IMG/VR virus record: IMGVR_UViG_3300032312_002037
Coordinates: 1-64,000 of that record
Strand: one strand, 5' to 3'
Source of the DNA: a virus
Lineage: Duplodnaviria; Caudoviricetes
DNA: 64,000 bases
The position numbers and the translations under genes were made by a program. A model generated the notes under the pieces. It saw only the letters and a program-made list of their open reading frames with translations, was not told the DNA's origin and made no database searches. Of the stretch, positions 1-56,112 are shown piece after piece (positions within the stretch are counted from its first letter, which is position 1; each line of letters opens with the position of its first letter).

Positions 1-20
1 CGTTATAAAACATAAAAATA

Positions 21-209
21 TTATTTAATTCCTTTCCATATTATAGGTACTAAAAATATATTCAAAATACCCAAAAACGACATCATTAGCCAACATCTTA
101 ATCTATAACTTTTTACATTTGTATCTACTATAAATATATTAAAATTTGAATATATTTTTATAATAGAAATTCCCACTAACATCCAAATAAATAATCCTAA
201 TATTACCAT
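21..209 (-). CDS. Small membrane protein, cassette-like ORF
   Basis: 62-aa ORF with two hydrophobic segments. It lies between inverted-repeat site A (226-316) and a TATAACG half-site at bases 1-7. Confidence 0.55.
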   Translation of the reverse strand: MVILGLFIWMLVGISIIKIYSNFNIFIVDTNVKSYRLRCWLMMSFLGILNIFLVPIIWKGIK

Positions 210-225
210 AATATTTTTACGATTT

Positions 226-316
226 TATAACAAGGTATATGTGAAATACCTCATAAAGTTTATACTAAATTATTAAGTTCTGTGGTAAGGTACTTCACAT
301 ATACCCAACCGTTATA
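226..316 (-). repeat. attC-like imperfect inverted repeat, site A
   Basis: Minus strand reads TATAAC-GGTT-GGGTATATGTGAAGTACCTTA ... TGAGGTATTTCACATATACCT-T-GTTATA. All 21 arm positions pair (3 G-T wobbles). The upstream ORF's TAA stop lies inside TATAAC. Confidence 0.85.
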
Positions 317-596
317 CAAAATTATTTTTTCCTCTTTTGTAATCACTCCATAAAACTAACCACATACTTAACAATAACCATATTGCACTTCCAATGAATG
401 TCCATTGAACAAAAGAGGAAATCGCAAAACCAAAATTTGAATAAGCGTGTGCGAATGCAACAATAGCACCTATAACGCATAACGTTAGTGGTGGTAATAA
501 AACTATTGCTCTAAATTTTGGTTTTTCTAAATAACTATGTATAACAGCAAGTATAGGTAATTTGCTATTCTCCGATTTAACATTTTCTGTATTCAT
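312..596 (-). CDS. Two-TM membrane protein, cassette-like ORF
   Basis: 94 aa with two hydrophobic helices. It starts in the loop of site B and ends in the TATAAC core of site A. Confidence 0.7.
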   Translation of the reverse strand: MNTENVKSENSKLPILAVIHSYLEKPKFRAIVLLPPLTLCVIGAIVAFAHAYSNFGFAISSFVQWTFIGSAIWLLLSMWLVLWSDYKRGKNNFV

Positions 597-667
597 AATA
601 TTTGTATTTTAATTAAAGTTTATACTAATTTTGATGAGCAAACTACCCATACTTGCGAACCGTTATA
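540..667 (-). repeat. attC-like imperfect inverted repeat, site B
   Basis: Minus strand reads TATAAC-GGTTC-GCAAGTATGGGTAGTTTGCT ... AGCAAATTACCTATACTTGC-T-GTTATA. All 20 arm positions pair (2 G-T wobbles). The loop shares TTAGTATAAACTTTA with site A. Confidence 0.85.
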
Positions 668-678
668 GTGAATTAAAA

Positions 679-966
679 TTATTCAAAGGTCTCTGCATAA
701 TAATTTCCATAACTAACATTATCAGTAAGCACTTGTTTTGTAAATTTATCAAACAAAATTAATTCATTTATATCAGATTTACATAAACAAACTTCATCAT
801 TTTCAAAAACTATTTCAGTCATATAAAAATCATCGTATTTATGCTTACCTCTATCAGAGGTAAATCTTACTTTTTTATTTGTATTAATTTTGTCTGAATA
901 ATTTTCACTCACTATAACATCGTGTATAGCACATTGCTTTTCGTTTTTCAAATTATCTTTATTCAT
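679..966 (-). CDS. Hypothetical protein, cassette-like ORF
   Basis: 95-aa ORF whose N-terminus (CAIHDVIVS) is encoded by the GTTATA arm of site C. Confidence 0.7.
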   Translation of the reverse strand: MNKDNLKNEKQCAIHDVIVSENYSDKINTNKKVRFTSDRGKHKYDDFYMTEIVFENDEVCLCKSDINELILFDKFTKQVLTDNVSYGNYYAETFE

Positions 967-1016
967 ATTTTTAAAATTTATCGTTTCAAATTAAGTTCTG
1001 TGTAAGCAACCGTTGT
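913..1016 (-). repeat. Degenerate or hybrid attC-like site C
   Basis: Minus strand reads CACAAC-GGTT ... CACAGAACTTAAT (shared with the site A loop) ... GTTATAG. The two arms no longer complement each other. Confidence 0.55.
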
Positions 1017-1033
1017 GTGTAAGTGTGGTTCTA

Positions 1034-1507
1034 TTACAGGTTGAATCTTATACATTGGTCTAAGATATATTTAGAGTGTTCTAATTGTAAGTGAGTTGCC
1101 AAACCAACAGTGATGTGGAAACCAAAGTAAGGATTAGGATCCAATCCAATAACACTTCTGATGTTTCTAGCATCATCACTATCAGCATTAATCCACCAGT
1201 GACCTTTATCATTAGCACGAATTAAAGAAGGATCGTATTTTACAACAATTTCTTTACCGTGAAATAGTTGACGAGCTTGAGCATATAATTCATCAGATTC
1301 AAATCTATCGTTGATGATAGTTAAGTGAGTTCCTCTTAAAGGTTTGTTTAACTTCAAGTTGAATCTTTTTTCTAAGAACCAAGAGTAGTAAGCCCAAAGG
1401 TCACAATCAAATCTAACCATAGCAGTTTTCTTCCAAGAAGCTTGTTTATTATGCTTTTTAGTGACGTTAACTGGGTCAAATTCTAATATGCCTTTAATTT
1501 CTAACAT
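1034..1507 (-). CDS. 2H phosphoesterase family protein
   Basis: Two HxT motifs (GTHLTII, GFHITVG). Start moved to Met6 because a TATCTTTG promoter box overlaps the track's first codons. Confidence 0.7.
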   Translation of the reverse strand: MLEIKGILEFDPVNVTKKHNKQASWKKTAMVRFDCDLWAYYSWFLEKRFNLKLNKPLRGTHLTIINDRFESDELYAQARQLFHGKEIVVKYDPSLIRANDKGHWWINADSDDARNIRSVIGLDPNPYFGFHITVGLATHLQLEHSKYILDQCIRFNL

Positions 1508-1556
1508 GTCACAAAGATACAAATAAAATTTTATATATACAATAAATAATAAAAAT

Positions 1557-1985
1557 ATGGTATTAACTACACTTATATTAACAAATCTAGTCTGGGTTGG
1601 TTACGCACTAACCGAAGGATTAAGAGAAGGTTTCTATTGGCACTATGAAAATAACAGCAGAAGAGTATGTGATTTTGATATAAATCCTATCTTTAACCTA
1701 CAAAGAGTTTTAGTTATGATAATAACGGGTGGCTTTATGGTACATACACTTGGTTGGTTTTCACTACTTTGTTTGGCTTGTATGTTCTTAATGTTTAATT
1801 TTTTTCACAACGGAACTTATTACTATACAAGAAACAAACTAGACGGAAGATCTTATCCAAAAGGATGGAAAGATGAATCTAAAACATTTCCAAGATTTAC
1901 ACCATTAACTACATATAAAAAAAGAACATTAGGTATGGCTATTGGCTTTTTAGCTCAAATATTTATATACCTATTTTTATTATAA
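1557..1985 (+). CDS. Multi-pass membrane protein
   Basis: 142 aa with several hydrophobic segments. Confidence 0.7.
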   Translation: MVLTTLILTNLVWVGYALTEGLREGFYWHYENNSRRVCDFDINPIFNLQRVLVMIITGGFMVHTLGWFSLLCLACMFLMFNFFHNGTYYYTRNKLDGRSYPKGWKDESKTFPRFTPLTTYKKRTLGMAIGFLAQIFIYLFLL

Positions 1986-2000
1986 AAATTAAATAAAATT

Positions 2001-2186
2001 ATGAAAGATTCAGAATTAATTAAAAATTCAAGTTTATCTCAAAAAGAAATAAACATGCTAAGAGAAAAGTTTTTACACGAATACTCTAAAGACAAAGGTT
2101 GGAATCCAAAAGAGCTATCAACTAATCAAATGTTAGAGATTGTATCTCAAAAACAATATAAAACGCCTGGTTTGATATTAGGATAA
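2001..2186 (+). CDS. Small hypothetical protein
   Basis: 61-aa ORF followed directly by a terminator. Confidence 0.65.
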   Translation: MKDSELIKNSSLSQKEINMLREKFLHEYSKDKGWNPKELSTNQMLEIVSQKQYKTPGLILG

Positions 2187-2216
2187 AAAAAAGAGAACTT
2201 AAAGTTCTCTTTTTTT
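2185..2216. terminator. Bidirectional intrinsic terminator
   Basis: A-tract, AAGAGAACTT/AAGTTCTCTT hairpin and T-tract between convergent genes. Confidence 0.8.
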
Positions 2217-2217
2217 A

Positions 2218-3306
2218 TTAGAATACTAAATCATTTATAGTAGTCAACTTTTCTTTAAGTTTGTTCAAAGGTACTGAACATAAATCAGATATCATTTCCA
2301 TAAGGTCTGTTCTTGAGCCAACAAAGTCATAACAACCTGTTCCATTCTGAACATAACACTTGTGTCCGTTCCAAGTCATATCATAATACTCACTATAACC
2401 ATTGTATATCAACCAGTTTCTTATTATTTCAGATTCTTTTTTTATCAAATCAGTAGCAATATACATTTTCTTTGTTTTACCATCAATTGAGAAGTATGAG
2501 TAATATTCTTCAGAATAACCTTCAACATCTAACTCTATATCATCTTCAAAATCATCATCATCATTTGAAAGGTCATAAGGATTTCTTTCAACTGGAAGTG
2601 TTTCCCAATCAATTAAACAAACCGCTTTACAAAGTCTTTGCAAGAAGTCAATATTTTGATATTCACTTGTTGTGTGCTCATGCATATAACCAACAGAAAT
2701 ATTAGTACACTCTGGTACAATATCCATAAATTGAGCAGAGTCTGTTAAAACACCAGTATCATCTGGTTCTAATTTTAACCTTTGACCGGTTCCATTTAAT
2801 CTAAAAGATAATTCATCAGCAAATTCATCTGAGCAACAACGACCATACCACTGGTGTGTAATAACAGAACAATCACTTCTTCTATCAAATGAAACAACTT
2901 TTGAAATGGTATAACTGAATTCACTATTTACCCAATTTTGGGCTAATTTTCCAGAACCAATACAACCAACTTCTTCACCAATGAAAAAGTAATAAAGACC
3001 AGGAACTTTATTCTCAATCATATTAAGAACAACTACCATACCGGCTTTATCATCAGCTCCTAAAATAGAAGAGCCATCAGTTTTGATTATATTTTGAGTT
3101 TGAACATGATTTACTTTTACTTGTTTAGAACAAGCTGTGTCTAAGTGACAAGTAAACATAGTTGTTGGACTTTCACCTATTAGATAATAGTAGTTACCAT
3201 AGGCATCTTTTTTATATCCAACTGGTAAATAGGATTGTAAAAATCCTTCAGTGCCATATGGATATGTGTATCGTGTAAGTTGTAGAAACTTTCTTCTTAT
3301 TCTCAT
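2218..3306 (-). CDS. M28/M20-family zinc metallopeptidase, copy 1
   Basis: Motifs CHLDT, GADDKAG, GEEVG, SFDRR, TDSA and NISVGYxxEH. Confidence 0.85.
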   Translation of the reverse strand: MRIRRKFLQLTRYTYPYGTEGFLQSYLPVGYKKDAYGNYYYLIGESPTTMFTCHLDTACSKQVKVNHVQTQNIIKTDGSSILGADDKAGMVVVLNMIENKVPGLYYFFIGEEVGCIGSGKLAQNWVNSEFSYTISKVVSFDRRSDCSVITHQWYGRCCSDEFADELSFRLNGTGQRLKLEPDDTGVLTDSAQFMDIVPECTNISVGYMHEHTTSEYQNIDFLQRLCKAVCLIDWETLPVERNPYDLSNDDDDFEDDIELDVEGYSEEYYSYFSIDGKTKKMYIATDLIKKESEIIRNWLIYNGYSEYYDMTWNGHKCYVQNGTGCYDFVGSRTDLMEMISDLCSVPLNKLKEKLTTINDLVF

Positions 3307-3332
3307 TAATGTATAATTATATGTGTATTTGA

Positions 3333-3364
3333 CAAATATACATAACTTATCAACAATTTACAAA
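3333..3364 (-). promoter_or_regulatory. Bacteroidota-type primary-sigma promoter (-33/-7)
   Basis: Minus strand TTTG-N20-TATATTTG upstream of the peptidase; matches the TTTG / TAnnTTTG consensus. Confidence 0.75.
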
Positions 3365-3895
3365 TTATTCAGCATTTTTATTGAAAATGTCATCAATTTT
3401 TTTATTACGAATGTAAGACTTTGATAAATTTTCTAAGTTAGAAGACCATCCTGATATTTTATCAGTGATTAAATACTCATTATGATAAATATCTCTTGAT
3501 CCAATTTTAACGTGATAATCAGTTACATCTTCTGAAGATTTATAATGGTACTCTTTGGCTAGTATAATATAATCAATGTTTAATTTATCAATAACTTGTT
3601 TATATTCTATTATTGAAGAAACACTTAAATGCCAAAAATCAAATACTAATAAATCAACTCTAAATAAATTACCTTTGTTATTTAATAGCTCGGTAAAATC
3701 TTCAATATTATTAAAATTTATTTTAGGCTCCATTAAATATTTTAAAGTAGTAGCCGTTGAATTTGAATTTTTTGGTTTACAAAATAAGACAGGATTTCTA
3801 CCCTCCATATCTAAGAAGTCAACTATTTTCTTAACAGCGTAAGAAACATCTGAAGGGTTACCGGTGATATAATTACACCTTTTTATTTCTATCAT
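3365..3895 (-). CDS. Hypothetical protein, possibly a degenerate P-loop/RecA-like fold
   Basis: 176 aa with a Walker-B-like DLLVFD but no Walker A. The C-terminus carries the RNKKIDDIF motif. Confidence 0.55.
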   Translation of the reverse strand: MIEIKRCNYITGNPSDVSYAVKKIVDFLDMEGRNPVLFCKPKNSNSTATTLKYLMEPKINFNNIEDFTELLNNKGNLFRVDLLVFDFWHLSVSSIIEYKQVIDKLNIDYIILAKEYHYKSSEDVTDYHVKIGSRDIYHNEYLITDKISGWSSNLENLSKSYIRNKKIDDIFNKNAE

Positions 3896-4274
3896 TTATA
3901 TTATTTTTTGTCACATCAACTAAATAGTTGAATTTATAAAGAAATCTTCTACCTATTAAAACAGGATATTTCATATTTTTTCTATCTGCTAAAGATACAT
4001 AAAATTTATATATTGAATCACCTATTATTATTTTAGTCAAAATTGAAAATCTTTTTTGAACTTCACCAAATGAATTTTTAACACTAATCATCTTAAACTT
4101 ATCATAAGAAAACTCGTCAGTGTCTATTGTAAAATATAAAATGCCTTTTTCATGTCTAATACCATCAACATGCAATGCAACGCCATAAGCACCGGTATCA
4201 ACTTTAGCTTTTATATCTCCTATTTTTAGTTCAGGAAAAGAAATATTTTCACTTCTTCCTACTTTTTTCTTCAT
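3873..4274 (-). CDS. RimK-associated retropepsin-like protease (ATP-dependent Zn protease family)
   Basis: Motifs AKVDTGA, LADRKNMKYPVLIGRRFL. Start reassigned to MKKKVGRSE. Confidence 0.8.
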   Translation of the reverse strand: MKKKVGRSENISFPELKIGDIKAKVDTGAYGVALHVDGIRHEKGILYFTIDTDEFSYDKFKMISVKNSFGEVQKRFSILTKIIIGDSIYKFYVSLADRKNMKYPVLIGRRFLYKFNYLVDVTKNNINDRNKKV

Positions 4275-4310
4275 TTTACAAAAAGAACATTTTTTTATAT
4301 ATAATTTTAT

Positions 4311-6467
4311 ATGATTCTTATTAATAAAGTCACACCATTTGCAAATGAAACATTTCAAAAAGATTTAATTGAATGTATTAAACACAATATAGACATTAGT
4401 TTTATAACAAATATAATAGTTTTTTATAACAACTCAAATATTATATTACCCAAAAATAGTAAAGTTAAATTAATAATTAAAAATGGTTATACTGATAAAG
4501 ACATAATTGAATATTGCAAATTAATTACAAATGAGGATATTTTTATATTTTCAAATCCATTTATAAAATTTAATAACTCTTTAATTAACTTAGAAAGACC
4601 TATAAATTCAGTTAATAAAATTGGAAATGATTGTTTTATTTTCAATAGAAATGAAAAAATAATAGGAAATACTATTGAAGAAATATTCAAAATAACCACG
4701 AACAATAATAAAATATCCGTGAATAGAAAACAAATTTGGACAGAAGAAATCAAAAAAATAGATACTAAATTAAATAATATAGTTTCTATAAAAAAACTAT
4801 CAAAAAGTCAAATTAAAGTAAATGTTATAATAGTTTCAGTTGATTATAATGACGTTTTACCAATAACACTTGAAAGTATACCAAGTTTATTTAATGTAAC
4901 TGTTGTCACATCACCTAATGATACTATTTGTCAAGAAATATGCAAAGGTTTTGAAGTAAATTGTATAGTTACTGAAAGAATGTATGAAGATAATGCCTTT
5001 TTCAATAAAGGAAAAGCTATAAATGAAGGTCTTAAATCTATTCAGAATCCAGATTGGATATTGCTATTAGATGCTGATATTTATTTACAATCTGACTTCA
5101 AAGATTTACTAAACTCAAATATGGATATTAACACTCTTATAACCTGCAAAAGGCTAATAATTAAAAATGGAGAAGATTTTATAAAATGGAAAAATGGCGA
5201 AGATGTTGGTAAAATGGAAAGGTCGAAAGGATATGGCTATTTTCAATTATTTAACGCAAATTGTCAATCAAATAAAAAATTCTTTTACTCTGAAGATTAT
5301 ACAGATGCAAGCTATAGTGATTTAGAATTCAGAGATAGATTTAAAATTAAAAAAGAGCTAAACACATATGTAATTCATTTAGGCGAAACAAATCAAAACT
5401 GGTCAGGAAGAATAACAGAAAAATTTATTAATAAAGAACTAAAATTACCACATGTTCTATCAAATGATATTTGCAGATTTGAAGGAATGGTTAAAAAAAA
5501 TATCAGAATCGTTTCAACTAAAGAATTTAATTTAAAAAACGGAGGCATTTACAATCCTGGTTTATTTTATATAAAAGATAAAAAATACATTATAACTAGA
5601 TGTGAAAAAAACTTTGATTCATATCTTGGAATATATGAAAATTATTGGAATAATCTAGTAAATCCAATGTACTTTCAAATAGATGATAATTTTAATATTT
5701 TAGACTTTGGAGTTTTTAAAATGAATAAATTTCCAATACTAATGAGATATGAAGATTTTAGAGTTTTTGAATATCAAGGAAAAATAATATCAAATCACAG
5801 TTTAATTAATCCAAACTACAATTACAAAGGTGAAGACTCATGGCCCAACATGAATATATGTACAAAACCTGGAGTTTTTATATCAGTAAATTTATCAGAA
5901 ATTGATATTGAAAATGAATCTATTATAAATAAAGGTTCAATAAAACTAGAAAGTAGTTACAACATAGAAAAAAATTGGTCTTTCTTCTCTGAAGATAATC
6001 ATTTGTTTTTTATTTACTCATTAGATCCATTTTTGATATATAAAAAAGTTAATGATGATTTTGTAAAGGTTATAGATAAAAAGTTTGATTACAAGTGGAA
6101 TGTTAATACATGTGGAATGAAGTATTGTATAAGTACAAATTTAAAAAGATTAAATGATGATTATTATATTTTACTATTTCATACAAAAGTCAACGGATAT
6201 AAGTATGTACAAGGTTGTATGTTATTAGATAACGATTTTATACCAGTATTTATGACTAAAAATCCTATTCTAGAGTCTGAAAAAATGATGGGTAAATATC
6301 CTAATGTTTTATATGCCTTTTCAGTTGATGTCAAAGATGATGAACTACATGTTTATTATGGAGAAGCCGACACAAATTGCAGCGTGGTAATAATTGATAA
6401 AGAGATTTTACTAGATAATTTAATAAACTCTAATAATTCTCATAAAATAAAAGAAGTTACTATATGA
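4311..6467 (+). CDS. Multidomain glycosyltransferase (GT2-like) fused to a GH130/GH43-like beta-propeller
   Basis: Central FNKGKAINEG..WILLLDADI (DXD). C-terminal YNPGL, EDFRVF, EKNWSFF, VYYGEADT propeller motifs. Confidence 0.7.
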   Translation: MILINKVTPFANETFQKDLIECIKHNIDISFITNIIVFYNNSNIILPKNSKVKLIIKNGYTDKDIIEYCKLITNEDIFIFSNPFIKFNNSLINLERPINSVNKIGNDCFIFNRNEKIIGNTIEEIFKITTNNNKISVNRKQIWTEEIKKIDTKLNNIVSIKKLSKSQIKVNVIIVSVDYNDVLPITLESIPSLFNVTVVTSPNDTICQEICKGFEVNCIVTERMYEDNAFFNKGKAINEGLKSIQNPDWILLLDADIYLQSDFKDLLNSNMDINTLITCKRLIIKNGEDFIKWKNGEDVGKMERSKGYGYFQLFNANCQSNKKFFYSEDYTDASYSDLEFRDRFKIKKELNTYVIHLGETNQNWSGRITEKFINKELKLPHVLSNDICRFEGMVKKNIRIVSTKEFNLKNGGIYNPGLFYIKDKKYIITRCEKNFDSYLGIYENYWNNLVNPMYFQIDDNFNILDFGVFKMNKFPILMRYEDFRVFEYQGKIISNHSLINPNYNYKGEDSWPNMNICTKPGVFISVNLSEIDIENESIINKGSIKLESSYNIEKNWSFFSEDNHLFFIYSLDPFLIYKKVNDDFVKVIDKKFDYKWNVNTCGMKYCISTNLKRLNDDYYILLFHTKVNGYKYVQGCMLLDNDFIPVFMTKNPILESEKMMGKYPNVLYAFSVDVKDDELHVYYGEADTNCSVVIIDKEILLDNLINSNNSHKIKEVTI

Positions 6468-56003: not shown

Positions 56004-56035
56004 AATACTAAATAAAGGCGCAGATTTATAAATTA

Positions 56036-56096
56036 AAAACCCACCAATCGGTGGGTTTTTTTATTTAACAAAAAACCCACCGATTGGTGGGTTTTT
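56036..56096. terminator. Paired mirror-image terminators
   Basis: ACCCACCAATCGGTGGGT followed by its exact reverse complement ACCCACCGATTGGTGGGT, each flanked by A/T tracts. Confidence 0.85.
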
Positions 56097-56112
56097 AATT
56101 TTAATATTATTC

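Follow-up and report, generated by a model that had tools for sequence, protein, structure and literature searches.

Integrons have been regarded as a bacterial, and lately also an archaeal, device defined by the integrase IntI and its special domain. In class 1 integrons and in the chromosomal integron of Vibrio cholerae, IntI, a tyrosine recombinase, is encoded at the end of the cassette array and transcribed away from it, and a simple site (attI) lies beside its gene. The cassettes, most of which contain a single ORF, are separated by imperfect palindromes (attC), in which AAC...GTT cores are combined with an unpaired spacer and with a loop that varies in length. The AAC/GTT core is also the place of the cassette borders; the two strands differ in how well they fold, and cassette diversity is very high. 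All of these features recur in the phage arrays described below, the counterpart of attI being a TAAC|TAT... site found in relatives of the phage analysed here. A precedent for the recombination of hairpins without an IntI-type insertion is provided by phage CTXphi, which integrates at dif via XerCD, i.e. by the action of an Xer-type recombinase on a hairpin folded from one strand. CTXphi differs, however, in that it has a single attP hairpin and no cassette arrays, and the whole phage is integrated into the chromosome by host enzymes.

Integron-type sites in phages have been reported by Qi et al. (2023, PMC9892861), who applied IntegronFinder and HattCI to 10,705 GenBank phage genomes and identified 17 small clusters (CALINs), in addition to 3 bacterial integrons captured by phages; among the phages with such sites is a virulent Polaribacter phage with cassettes encoding DNA methyltransferases, and such sites can recombine. 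These clusters resemble the arrays described here in having integron-type sites and in the DNA methyltransferase cargo but, as described, are set apart by having no phage-native recombinase beside the arrays and by not involving very large phages (PMC9892861). A second comparable element is the PeSL (promoter-early stem-loop) of T4-type phages, in which a short stem-loop precedes a sigma-70-type promoter, a Shine-Dalgarno sequence, and an ATG (PMC4122927). Like the sites described here, PeSLs are repeated regulatory motifs that separate small variable ORFs where the genomes of large phages are plastic, and they are tied to insertions, deletions, and swaps (Arbiol 2010, PMC2839356; Comeau 2014, PMC4122927), but neither a simple site nor a dedicated recombinase is known to accompany them (PMC4122927). 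Our literature searches for integron-like systems of megaphages or jumbo phages gave nothing specific, and no published description was found.

The window analysed in this study is a stretch of 64,000 nt from an 81.9-kb phage contig (IMG/VR record IMGVR_UViG_3300032312_002037, positions 1 to 64,000). We regard it as likely that bases 1–1016 represent the far end of a cassette array that resembles an integron, and that the folded sites of this array would be exchanged by a recombinase related to Xer and IntI. The phage is probably very large and its host probably belongs to the Bacteroidota. The term jumbo phage used in the preliminary description of this DNA is in line with the 65–77% DNA identity of core genes to a 276-kb contig (G002) and with the CheckV completeness of 14% estimated for the 82-kb contig.

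The genes between positions 1 and 1522 are all encoded by the minus strand, and synteny was observed between this region and array 1 of G002. The array is bounded on its far side by a conserved gene, ORF162 (1034..1522), which exhibits a weak match to 2H phosphoesterases (PF22547, E 8e-5, below the cut-off) and whose homology with record G000 ends at the stop codon. Towards base 1, three cassettes follow on the same strand: cassette I (662..1011, 350 nt; site C body and ORF95, 966..679), cassette II (311..661, 351 nt; site B body and ORF94, 596..312), and cassette III (2..310, 309 nt; site A body and ORF62, 209..21), the borders of the last being placed by the AAC|G rule obtained from relatives. 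On the minus strand, the sequence TATAACG at bases 7..1 represents the core of a fourth site, in agreement with the half-site noticed previously; the contig stops inside this core, with the AAC|G border between bases 2 and 1. The assembly thus breaks at a repeated, variable site, which would explain its end at base 1. ORF94 is predicted to encode a membrane protein and ORF62 a small membrane-like protein, and none of the three cassette ORFs, including ORF95, belongs to a known family: searches of PHROGs and Pfam with the cassette proteins of the window were empty, and tblastn detected no relatives of ORF62, ORF94, or ORF95 across all fetched loci. The N-terminus of ORF95 resembles that of ORF94 and those of cassette proteins in G002 and in Polaribacter phage Freya_10. 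In the GenBank phage collection, no match was found to bases 1–6000 (megablast) or to site A (blastn).

Sites A (226..316) and B (540..667), both on the minus strand, fold into long hairpins. Both have a base of 7 bp. In site A, this base is followed by GTT as the bulge and by a stem of 21 bp with a loop of 32 nt; in site B, the bulge is GTTC, the stem has 20 bp, and the loop has 70 nt. The preliminary description gave pairings of 21/21 and 20/20, respectively. In both bases, TATAACG pairs with TGTTATA, one G.U pair included. The asymmetric bulge was also recovered, but what had been read as GGTT opposite one T is better represented by a G.T pair and a 3–4-nt bulge. Minus-strand fold energies are -32.1 kcal/mol for A (z = -5.6) and -34.2 kcal/mol for B (z = -5.55), and 0 of 200 shuffles folded as well, which bears out the hairpins noticed at the left edge, whereas the plus-strand folds are weaker (-26.0 and -29.8 kcal/mol, respectively). 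Site C (913..1016, minus strand) is degenerate, as previously described: it contains a core, ACAACGG (1016..1010), preceded by CCACACTTACAC, a word that recurs at cassette ends in relatives, but has only ~10 pairable bases and folds no better than shuffles (z = -0.4). A covariance model built from short-loop sites, with site A in its training set, yielded 85 bits for A, 22 bits for B (a partial match), and a non-significant 13.6 bits for C (E 3.4); the model certifies neither B, which is identified by its own fold statistics, nor C, which is identified by its core and context only.

The loop words that had been said to be shared were located at 256 and 616 (AAGTTTATACTAA) and at 272 and 990 (ATTAAGTTCTGT), and TTAGTATAAAC occurs in sites A and B. 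The stop codon recognized earlier within TATAAC is that of ORF94 (314..312), located in the core of site A. Site A exhibits 88% identity over 113 nt to partial contig G001 and 94% over 64 nt to G002, and no other DNA is as well conserved between these phages. The site family is confined to the left edge of the 81.9-kb contig; a model match at 56032–56105 turned out to be an unrelated, true terminator pair. Searching Rfam with positions 1–3000 at permissive E-values gave chance-level matches only. Sites A and B were rejected as intrinsic (rho-independent) terminators, which need a G+C-rich hairpin and a T-run, since their stems (27–28 bp) are AT-rich and no T-run/U-tract follows either site.

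In other phage contigs, 177 distinct sites of this family were identified. Like A and B, and like C in degenerate form, these sites are imperfect palindromes that combine AAC/GTT cores with an unpaired spacer and a loop of variable size, and structure is conserved over sequence. Among 49 sites, 95% of the cells were paired, compared with 73% for shuffled sequences and no more than 54% with the partners slid, although these percentages are partly built in by the scanner, which demanded a stem. Double changes were found in 252 cells compared with 76, i.e. the arms of related sites covary, in accordance with the compensatory arms that had been described for A and B. A miniature-transposon reading was rejected, because the arms differ among sites yet covary. 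In G002, model matches were confined to two arrays. Bacterial genomes with relatives of the recombinase described below contained no arrays of this site type. Chance palindromes, or decayed miniature transposons, could be suspected in AT-rich DNA (29% G+C) in which only two of the four sites are well formed. This possibility is extremely unlikely, given the fold statistics of site A, the number of related sites with covarying arms, their strong strand and position bias, and the single match in a control of 880 kb surrounding more distant recombinases in bacterial genomes.

G.U pairs are present at two fixed positions in 49/49 and 48/49 sites. In a scan tolerating both types of mismatch, G.T was found 427 times and A.C 61 times, and the sites were divided between the strands at 165 versus 1. 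The earlier statement that the wobble pairs favour the gene-sense strand is thus correct and of general validity, but the wobbles indicate the best-folding strand and not an RNA substrate; no evidence pointed to the RNA- or reverse transcriptase-mediated route that had also been considered. The hairpins might still act as RNA elements if the 27–28-bp helix of read-through transcripts were cut by a double-strand-specific RNase or blocked translation, with transcripts started in the loop escaping. For gene e of phage T4, only late transcripts starting inside a hairpin are translated, and such a role, which could coexist with one at the DNA level, would fit the gene-sense strand always being the better folder, the fixed G.U pairs, the promoter-like words between the arms, and the start codons in loops. 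As an account of the locus it is nevertheless unlikely. It leaves the borders at cores, the simple site, and the link to a recombinase unexplained, the start codons are in the loop and not in the stem, and the U-tract is missing behind A and B; G.T pairs stabilize folded DNA too, and no RNase III gene is present in the four phage records, although a host enzyme could serve.

Loop length ranges from 7 to ~170 nt. Start codons are present in 65 of the 90 long loops, whereas loops of 7–23 nt contain neither a promoter nor a start codon. In the loop of site B, the ATG of ORF94 is accompanied by the promoter-like word TTAGTATAAAC, and the 3' arm of this site is coding; both ORF94 and ORF95 start inside the loops of their sites (B and C, respectively) and continue through the 3' arm, where GTT is in frame, as previously stated. 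The commonest upstream word of the phage, TAATATATA(C), which is located upstream of 40 of 85 ORFs, is also present in G002, inside the loops of the sites at 193885 and 195438; reading of the sites by eye revealed neither a -35/-10 pair nor a Shine-Dalgarno sequence.

The occurrence of this word, or a variant, in loops and the frequency of start codons there suggest an alternative in which the hairpins are regulatory terminator/promoter modules like the PeSLs of T4-type phages, shuffled by homologous or illegitimate recombination at the motifs, the nearby recombinase being unrelated (e.g. an integrase or dimer resolvase). The phage has a T4-like capsid gene set, and PeSLs flank variable ORFs and yield mini-circles (PMC4122927). 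We consider this explanation improbable, for several reasons. PeSL stem-loops are short and precede the promoter, whereas the sites described here enclose the promoter-like word and ATG in a helix of ~28 bp, and the shortest loops contain neither element. Furthermore, cassette borders are limited to a fixed core of 3–6 nt adjoining the recombinase gene, which is too short for homologous recombination, and the TAAC site precedes the recombinase start by 60–90 nt in dozens of loci with otherwise unrelated flanks.

The association with a recombinase was observed in relatives of the phage. In 80 loci, each with one small Xer/IntI-like tyrosine recombinase gene, sites are on the recombinase strand in 121 cases and on the other in 3, and upstream of the gene in 116 cases compared with 8, with a density that climbs towards the gene. 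In dozens of loci, the arrays finish at a hairpin-less simple site, TAAC|TAT..., ahead of the recombinase start at the distance given above. Identity between loci rises from 0.35 to 0.87 precisely at the TAAC of this site, homology ceases at the recombinase stop codon, and neither flank can be aligned between loci; an interpretation of the array-recombinase link as mere conserved synteny is weakened, since the flanks of the loci do not align. In G002, the single PF00589 gene is located ~360 nt beyond the last site of array 1. Arrays or single sites with no recombinase detected in the record were found in array 2 of G002, in G001, and in G003 (complete according to CheckV).

No integrase had been noticed in the window, and the whole 81.9-kb contig proved to contain no recombinase gene, so the array-recombinase link for the window rests on its relatives. 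Locus L103 carries a relative of ORF162 (80% identical), followed by a site, one cassette, the TAAC simple site, and the recombinase gene. Because the ORF162 relative precedes these elements in that order, the recombinase gene of the phage in the window is probably located just past the contig end at base 1, and the array reading predicts what adjoins this base.

The recombinase of the relatives is 266 aa in length and contains 42 aa where VchIntIA has 90. Its best NCBIfam match was the XerA model (184 bits, cut-off 220), and it scored below every NCBIfam cut-off; the match to the integron-integrase profile was split in two and also below the cut-off. The closest solved structure is Pyrococcus XerA (4a8e, E 3e-40), followed by VchIntIA (2a3v, E 2.8e-26). 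As judged from sequence comparison, the enzyme is related to Xer but appears to form a clade of its own, and it is devoid of the IntI-specific insertion (alpha-I2 region).

Cassettes in relatives are highly diverse (166 cassettes in 147 clusters) and have a median length of 526 nt, compared with 309–351 nt in the window. Loci L071 and L088 share an identical 309-nt cassette between different neighbours, its limits being two TAACG cores, and homology between phages breaks exactly at TAAC/AAC cores. The cultured Polaribacter phages Freya_1, Freya_6, and Freya_10, which are otherwise 99.9% identical, are distinguished from each other by cassette insertions at xxAAC|, next to the integrase. In the relatives and in these cultured phages, cassette borders are thus inside the conserved core. 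Together with the presence of a TAAC site and an adjoining tyrosine recombinase gene at the array ends, these differences at cores support the earlier proposal of a gene-capture array with a recombinase off the left end. The hairpin travels with the downstream ORF, as 11 pairs share the downstream flank only and none the upstream flank only. The additional suggestion of an exchange of N-termini in frame did not hold up: homology begins at the 5' core, which precedes both the loop and the start codon, and for this reason the coding GTT is not the observed border.

When the longest ORFs of the two strands were compared, the one on the recombinase strand was longer than its antisense counterpart in 144 of 147 cassettes, and the genes are thus read towards the recombinase gene. 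This uniform orientation bears on a further alternative, an invertible switch in which the recombinase would flip the loop between the inverted arms and turn the gene on or off. Invertible switches are common in Bacteroidota, and the sites do combine inverted repeats around a promoter-like word and start codon with a tyrosine recombinase nearby. Inversion, however, turns G.T into A.C on the gene strand, where A.C is rare, and the polarity of G.T is kept (G on the 5' arm 364 times versus 63); as the arm sequences also vary from site to site, we consider a switch of this kind very unlikely.

Returning to the cassette array, the following mechanism is proposed. Each cassette would begin just after the AAC core with a folded site, in which the 7-bp base is followed by a 3–4-nt bulge, by ~20 bp of variable stem, and by a loop often with promoter-like words and a start codon; one small gene would follow, and the cassette would end with ...ATTGnnnATAAC. 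Recombination between two folded sites would excise a cassette, and recombination between a folded site and the simple TAAC|TAT... site beside the recombinase gene would insert it, with the exchange point inside the AAC core. We infer that the recombinase identified in relatives catalyses the exchange and that its substrate is folded single-stranded DNA. The folding strand would be the gene-sense strand, the counterpart of the attC bottom strand, with the border at the 5' base as in attC, and the recombinase gene would be located immediately beyond the near end of the array, with transcription directed away from the cassettes.

Such a system would not be an integron proper. The cassette genes occupy the counterpart of the attC bottom strand and are co-directional with the recombinase gene, i.e. 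opposite to the classical orientation; integron cassettes are promoterless, with a common promoter near attI, whereas the phage cassettes carry their own start codon, and probably a promoter, in the site loop. The sites have a 3–4-nt bulge and fixed G.T pairs instead of single extrahelical bases, the recombinase is short, XerA-like, and without the insertion specific to IntI, and the host of the arrays is a phage. The logic of the integron, i.e. a recombinase gene by a simple site and folded hairpins bounding single-gene cassettes, would thus be native to phage genomes, distinguished by a short Xer-like enzyme, by reversed and self-expressed cassette genes, and by recognizable cargo evading host defences.

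We lean slightly towards the broader view that phages of Bacteroidota, from ~45 kb to several hundred kb in size, possess their own integron analogue, in which an insertion-less Xer-type enzyme acts on folded single-stranded sites, with promoter and start codon in the loops, and a bank of counter-defence genes is kept and exchanged. If so, this bank would parallel the anti-phage defence cassettes of bacterial integrons, and hairpin-site cassette capture would need no IntI-specific domain. If the mechanism holds, it would account for the turnover of accessory genes in large phages, the reading of cassettes would be a route to new anti-defence genes, and the question of which IntI features are needed for folded-DNA recombination would become bench-testable, because cultured Polaribacter phages carry the system. 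The bank, so interpreted, comprises orphan DNA methyltransferases, Tad6, Lar, and probably injected proteins. The recognizable cargo of the relatives consists of five DNA methyltransferases, in addition to Tad6 and Lar.

The contig G000 (81,935 bases, 29% G+C), whose first base is also that of the window, is of phage origin, carrying genes for a major head protein, a portal, a prohead protease and a large terminase. Every gene between 1522 and 21 is located on the minus strand. Along this strand, ORF162 (1522..1034) bounds the array and is followed by site C (913-1016), the cassette gene ORF95 (966..679), site B (540-667), the cassette gene ORF94 (596..312), site A (226-316), the last cassette gene ORF62 (209..21), and a TATAACG core (7..1) at which the contig stops. 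When delimited by the AAC|G rule, the cassettes span 1011..662, 661..311, and 310..2 on the same strand. On the minus strand, sites A and B fold with a 7-bp base that pairs TATAACG with TGTTATA, the last pair being G.U, followed by a bulge (GTT in A and GTTC in B) and 21 and 20 more pairs, respectively; the plus-strand folds of both are weaker. The preliminary description of A and B as long hairpins and of C as degenerate is borne out by the fold z-scores (-5.6 for A and -5.55 for B, with no shuffle as stable) and by the lack of significant structure in C relative to shuffles. Also verified in the sequence were the loop words, a stop codon within a core, and two ORFs whose start lies in a loop and whose frame continues across the 3' arm. 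The ORF62, ORF94, and ORF95 proteins had no match to anything searched. ORF162 matches phrog_12204, a family without known function, and shows a weak likeness to 2H phosphoesterase (PF22547, E 8e-5, below the cut-off).

A search with a pattern of loop word plus core identified three further phage contigs, which were fetched whole, namely G001 (47 kb), G002 (276 kb), and G003 (45 kb). Their sites share the same architecture but have very different arms, with loops of 7 to 168 nt. G002 and G000 are related (core genes with 65-77% DNA identity), and the best-conserved stretch between them is site A (94% over 64 nt), which is also the sole DNA similarity of G000 to G001 (88% over 113 nt). A second array in G002 (244466-246890; locus L046) contains at least 6 sites, one with a complete 51-aa ORF between its arms, and lies 47 kb from the only recombinase gene of this phage. 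No tyrosine recombinase was found in the 45-kb G003. One G+C-rich site of G003 (L051:468-561) is nearly the same as a site (L118:4906-4999) in an array of a 172-kb phage contig, which suggests that sites or cassettes pass between unrelated phages.

A site scan of all fetched DNA, in which G.T and A.C were tolerated equally, yielded 177 distinct sites with 3138 Watson-Crick, 427 G.T, and 61 A.C pairs. G.T pairs outnumbered A.C pairs in 165 sites and the reverse held in 1, and the G of the G.T pairs lay in the 5' arm in 364 cases versus 63. An inverton, i.e. an invertible promoter switch, is contradicted by this G.T polarity, which is kept among the sites. When 49 short-loop sites were aligned, site A among them, 95.1% of cells were paired, compared with 73.1% in shuffles and at most 54% with slid partners; this pairing level is partly built in, as the scanner demanded a stem, whereas the slid controls and the variety of the arms (111 distinct 16-mers) are not. 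Compensatory covariation among homologous sites, the lack of which would have spoken against the preliminary description, is present (both-sided changes in 252 cells versus 76), and two G.U pairs are nearly invariant (49/49 and 48/49 sites). A covariance model built from this alignment gave matches in the 276-kb G002 that were confined to its two arrays, and the same search of G001 and G003 matched the known sites. In the window, this short-loop model matched A strongly, B partially, and C not at all. It also hit both strands (27.6 and 26.4 bits) at 56032-56105, a locus rejected as an unrelated, terminator-like hairpin pair; two inverted hairpin copies, AAAAACCCACC(A/G)ATCGGTGGGTTTTT, lie there back to back between convergent genes and look like a two-way terminator.

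Only one tyrosine recombinase gene (PF00589, E 1.5e-37) occurs in G002. It lies on the strand of the first array, begins ~360 nt beyond the final site there, and encodes a protein of 266 aa. This protein matches XerA-type enzymes best and scores below all curated cut-offs. Among solved structures, VchIntIA, the integron integrase of Vibrio cholerae, is its second-best relative, but the phage protein lacks the IntI-specific segment (42 aa versus 90 in VchIntIA). In the alignment with VchIntIA, inspected by eye, the usual catalytic motifs look intact (an arginine within GLRVSE, HxxR within HQLRHS, and the tyrosine within IYTHV). The survey covered 80 relatives of this enzyme, each with 10-kb flanks, from viral contigs that reach 464 kb in length. 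Among the 124 sites with stems of at least 16 bp, 121 were on the recombinase strand and 116 were upstream; the upstream density was 0.235 per kb versus 0.012 per kb and climbed toward the recombinase gene, with the nearest site 277-3906 nt off. In 880 kb of control DNA from bacterial genomes, surrounding more distant recombinases, one site match was obtained. Between loci with DNA-alignable recombinase genes, alignment extended over 4.6% of the 6 kb upstream and 0.1% of the 6 kb downstream, and homology ended at the recombinase stop codon, which weakens a mere conserved neighbourhood as the basis of the array-recombinase link. In four loci (L123, L105, L122, and L127), the recombinase genes, read in frame from the tblastn match start, stop after 351-525 nt (~800 is usual), and the L122 and L127 matches cover only part of the protein; these genes may be broken or interrupted, or may reflect a partial-match artefact.

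At nearly every locus, (A/C)TAAC followed by TATnATATAT... is found 60-90 nt before the recombinase ATG. For locus pairs that match at 80% or more over the 60 nt to the right of TAAC, identity averages 0.87 on that side and 0.35 to the left of it; column by column, the jump in identity falls exactly at the core of this hairpin-less simple site. To its left, each phage carries a different cassette, usually with the end ...ATTGnnnATAAC. The word TAATATATA(C), which in relatives also occurs after the simple site and before the recombinase gene, is, among 7-9-mers, the one most enriched within the 70 nt that precede ORFs in the whole of G000 and G002 and is probably the phage's main promoter element; ATATATA is present upstream of 40 of the 85 G000 ORFs. 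The 144-kb contig NZ_WVEM01000012.1, from Sunxiuqinia indica, a Bacteroidota isolate in culture, opens (bases 1-974) with GGTAAC|TAGTATATAT... and a recombinase with 53% identity to the phage enzyme; it may stem from a phage or prophage of this group that resides in a culturable host.

Cutting of the arrays at sites gave 166 cassettes in 147 sequence clusters, with a median length of 526 nt and a median longest ORF of 92 aa; the sense ORF was longer than the antisense ORF in 144 of the 147. Where two sites had the same hairpin, the pair had no flank in common in 237 cases, both flanks in 18, only the downstream flank in 11, and only the upstream flank in none; therefore, the unit consists of a hairpin and the gene after it. 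A 309-nt cassette is identical in loci L071 and L088 between different neighbours, with homology spanning one TAACG core to the next. The cultured Polaribacter phages Freya_1 to Freya_10 have an annotated integrase that shares 38% identity with the recombinase. Freya_1 and Freya_10 are 99.9-100% identical on either side of a 4.9-kb insertion located directly before the integrase (junctions ...ACAAC|GG... and ...CTAAC|ACCCC...), and Freya_6 carries yet other content joined at ...CCAAC|. Isolate genomes, and not metagenome assemblies alone, thus display these borders. In Freya_10, the first site folds and has an ATG in its loop, and the encoded N-terminus resembles that of ORF95. A regulatory module like the promoter-early stem-loop (PeSL) of T4-type phages, shuffled by homologous recombination, would account for the promoter-like words and the start codons inside loops, but neither the restriction of borders to a 3-6 nt core nor the simple site beside the recombinase fits it. 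A role of the helix as RNA would agree with the wobble bias and might go along with the role in DNA, but it accounts for none of the DNA-level facts.

The region of the window that holds the cassette array is syntenic with array 1 of G002. In locus L103, a relative of ORF162 (80% identical) precedes, in this order, a site, a single cassette, the TAAC simple site, and the recombinase; homology to G000 ends at the ORF162 stop codon. No recombinase gene is present anywhere in the G000 contig, in line with the reported absence of an integrase from the window; one would be expected beyond base 1 on the minus strand. If the strand opposite the genes is taken as top, the layout is integron-like, with the recombinase on the attI side and transcribed away from the array. 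On this top strand, the sites run ...AAC...GTT... and their border falls at the final G|TT, as in a classical integron, and the gene-sense strand resembles the attC bottom strand in folding best and in having the border at the 5' base. The system departs from integrons in having cassette genes that lie on the bottom-strand equivalent and carry a start of their own, a short enzyme of Xer-like type, and sites marked structurally by a bulge and by fixed G.T pairs. Either the strand that folds better or its mismatched complement may be the true substrate. No description of this system was found in the literature searched; the nearest paper reports that GenBank phages contain bacterial integrons that were captured, as well as small clusters of attC sites (PMC9892861).

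Cargo was examined in the 19 longest cassette ORFs of the relatives and in the cassette that closes array 1 of G002 (78 aa). Seven ORFs match families with known roles, namely five DNA methyltransferases (three of N6/N4 type, one C5, and one D12), Tad6 (E 4.6e-41), which inhibits type I Thoeris, and a Lar restriction-alleviation protein, which that closing G002 cassette encodes; an eighth matches only DUF6576, a domain of unknown function. Many unrelated cassette proteins (in L095, L103, L081, L105, L069, and L088) open with the leader MSKEMREQIDRIKNFKQF... and its variants (MSKEMRE..I.K.KNFKQF-type). T4 internal proteins bear capsid-targeting leaders, which this shared leader recalls.
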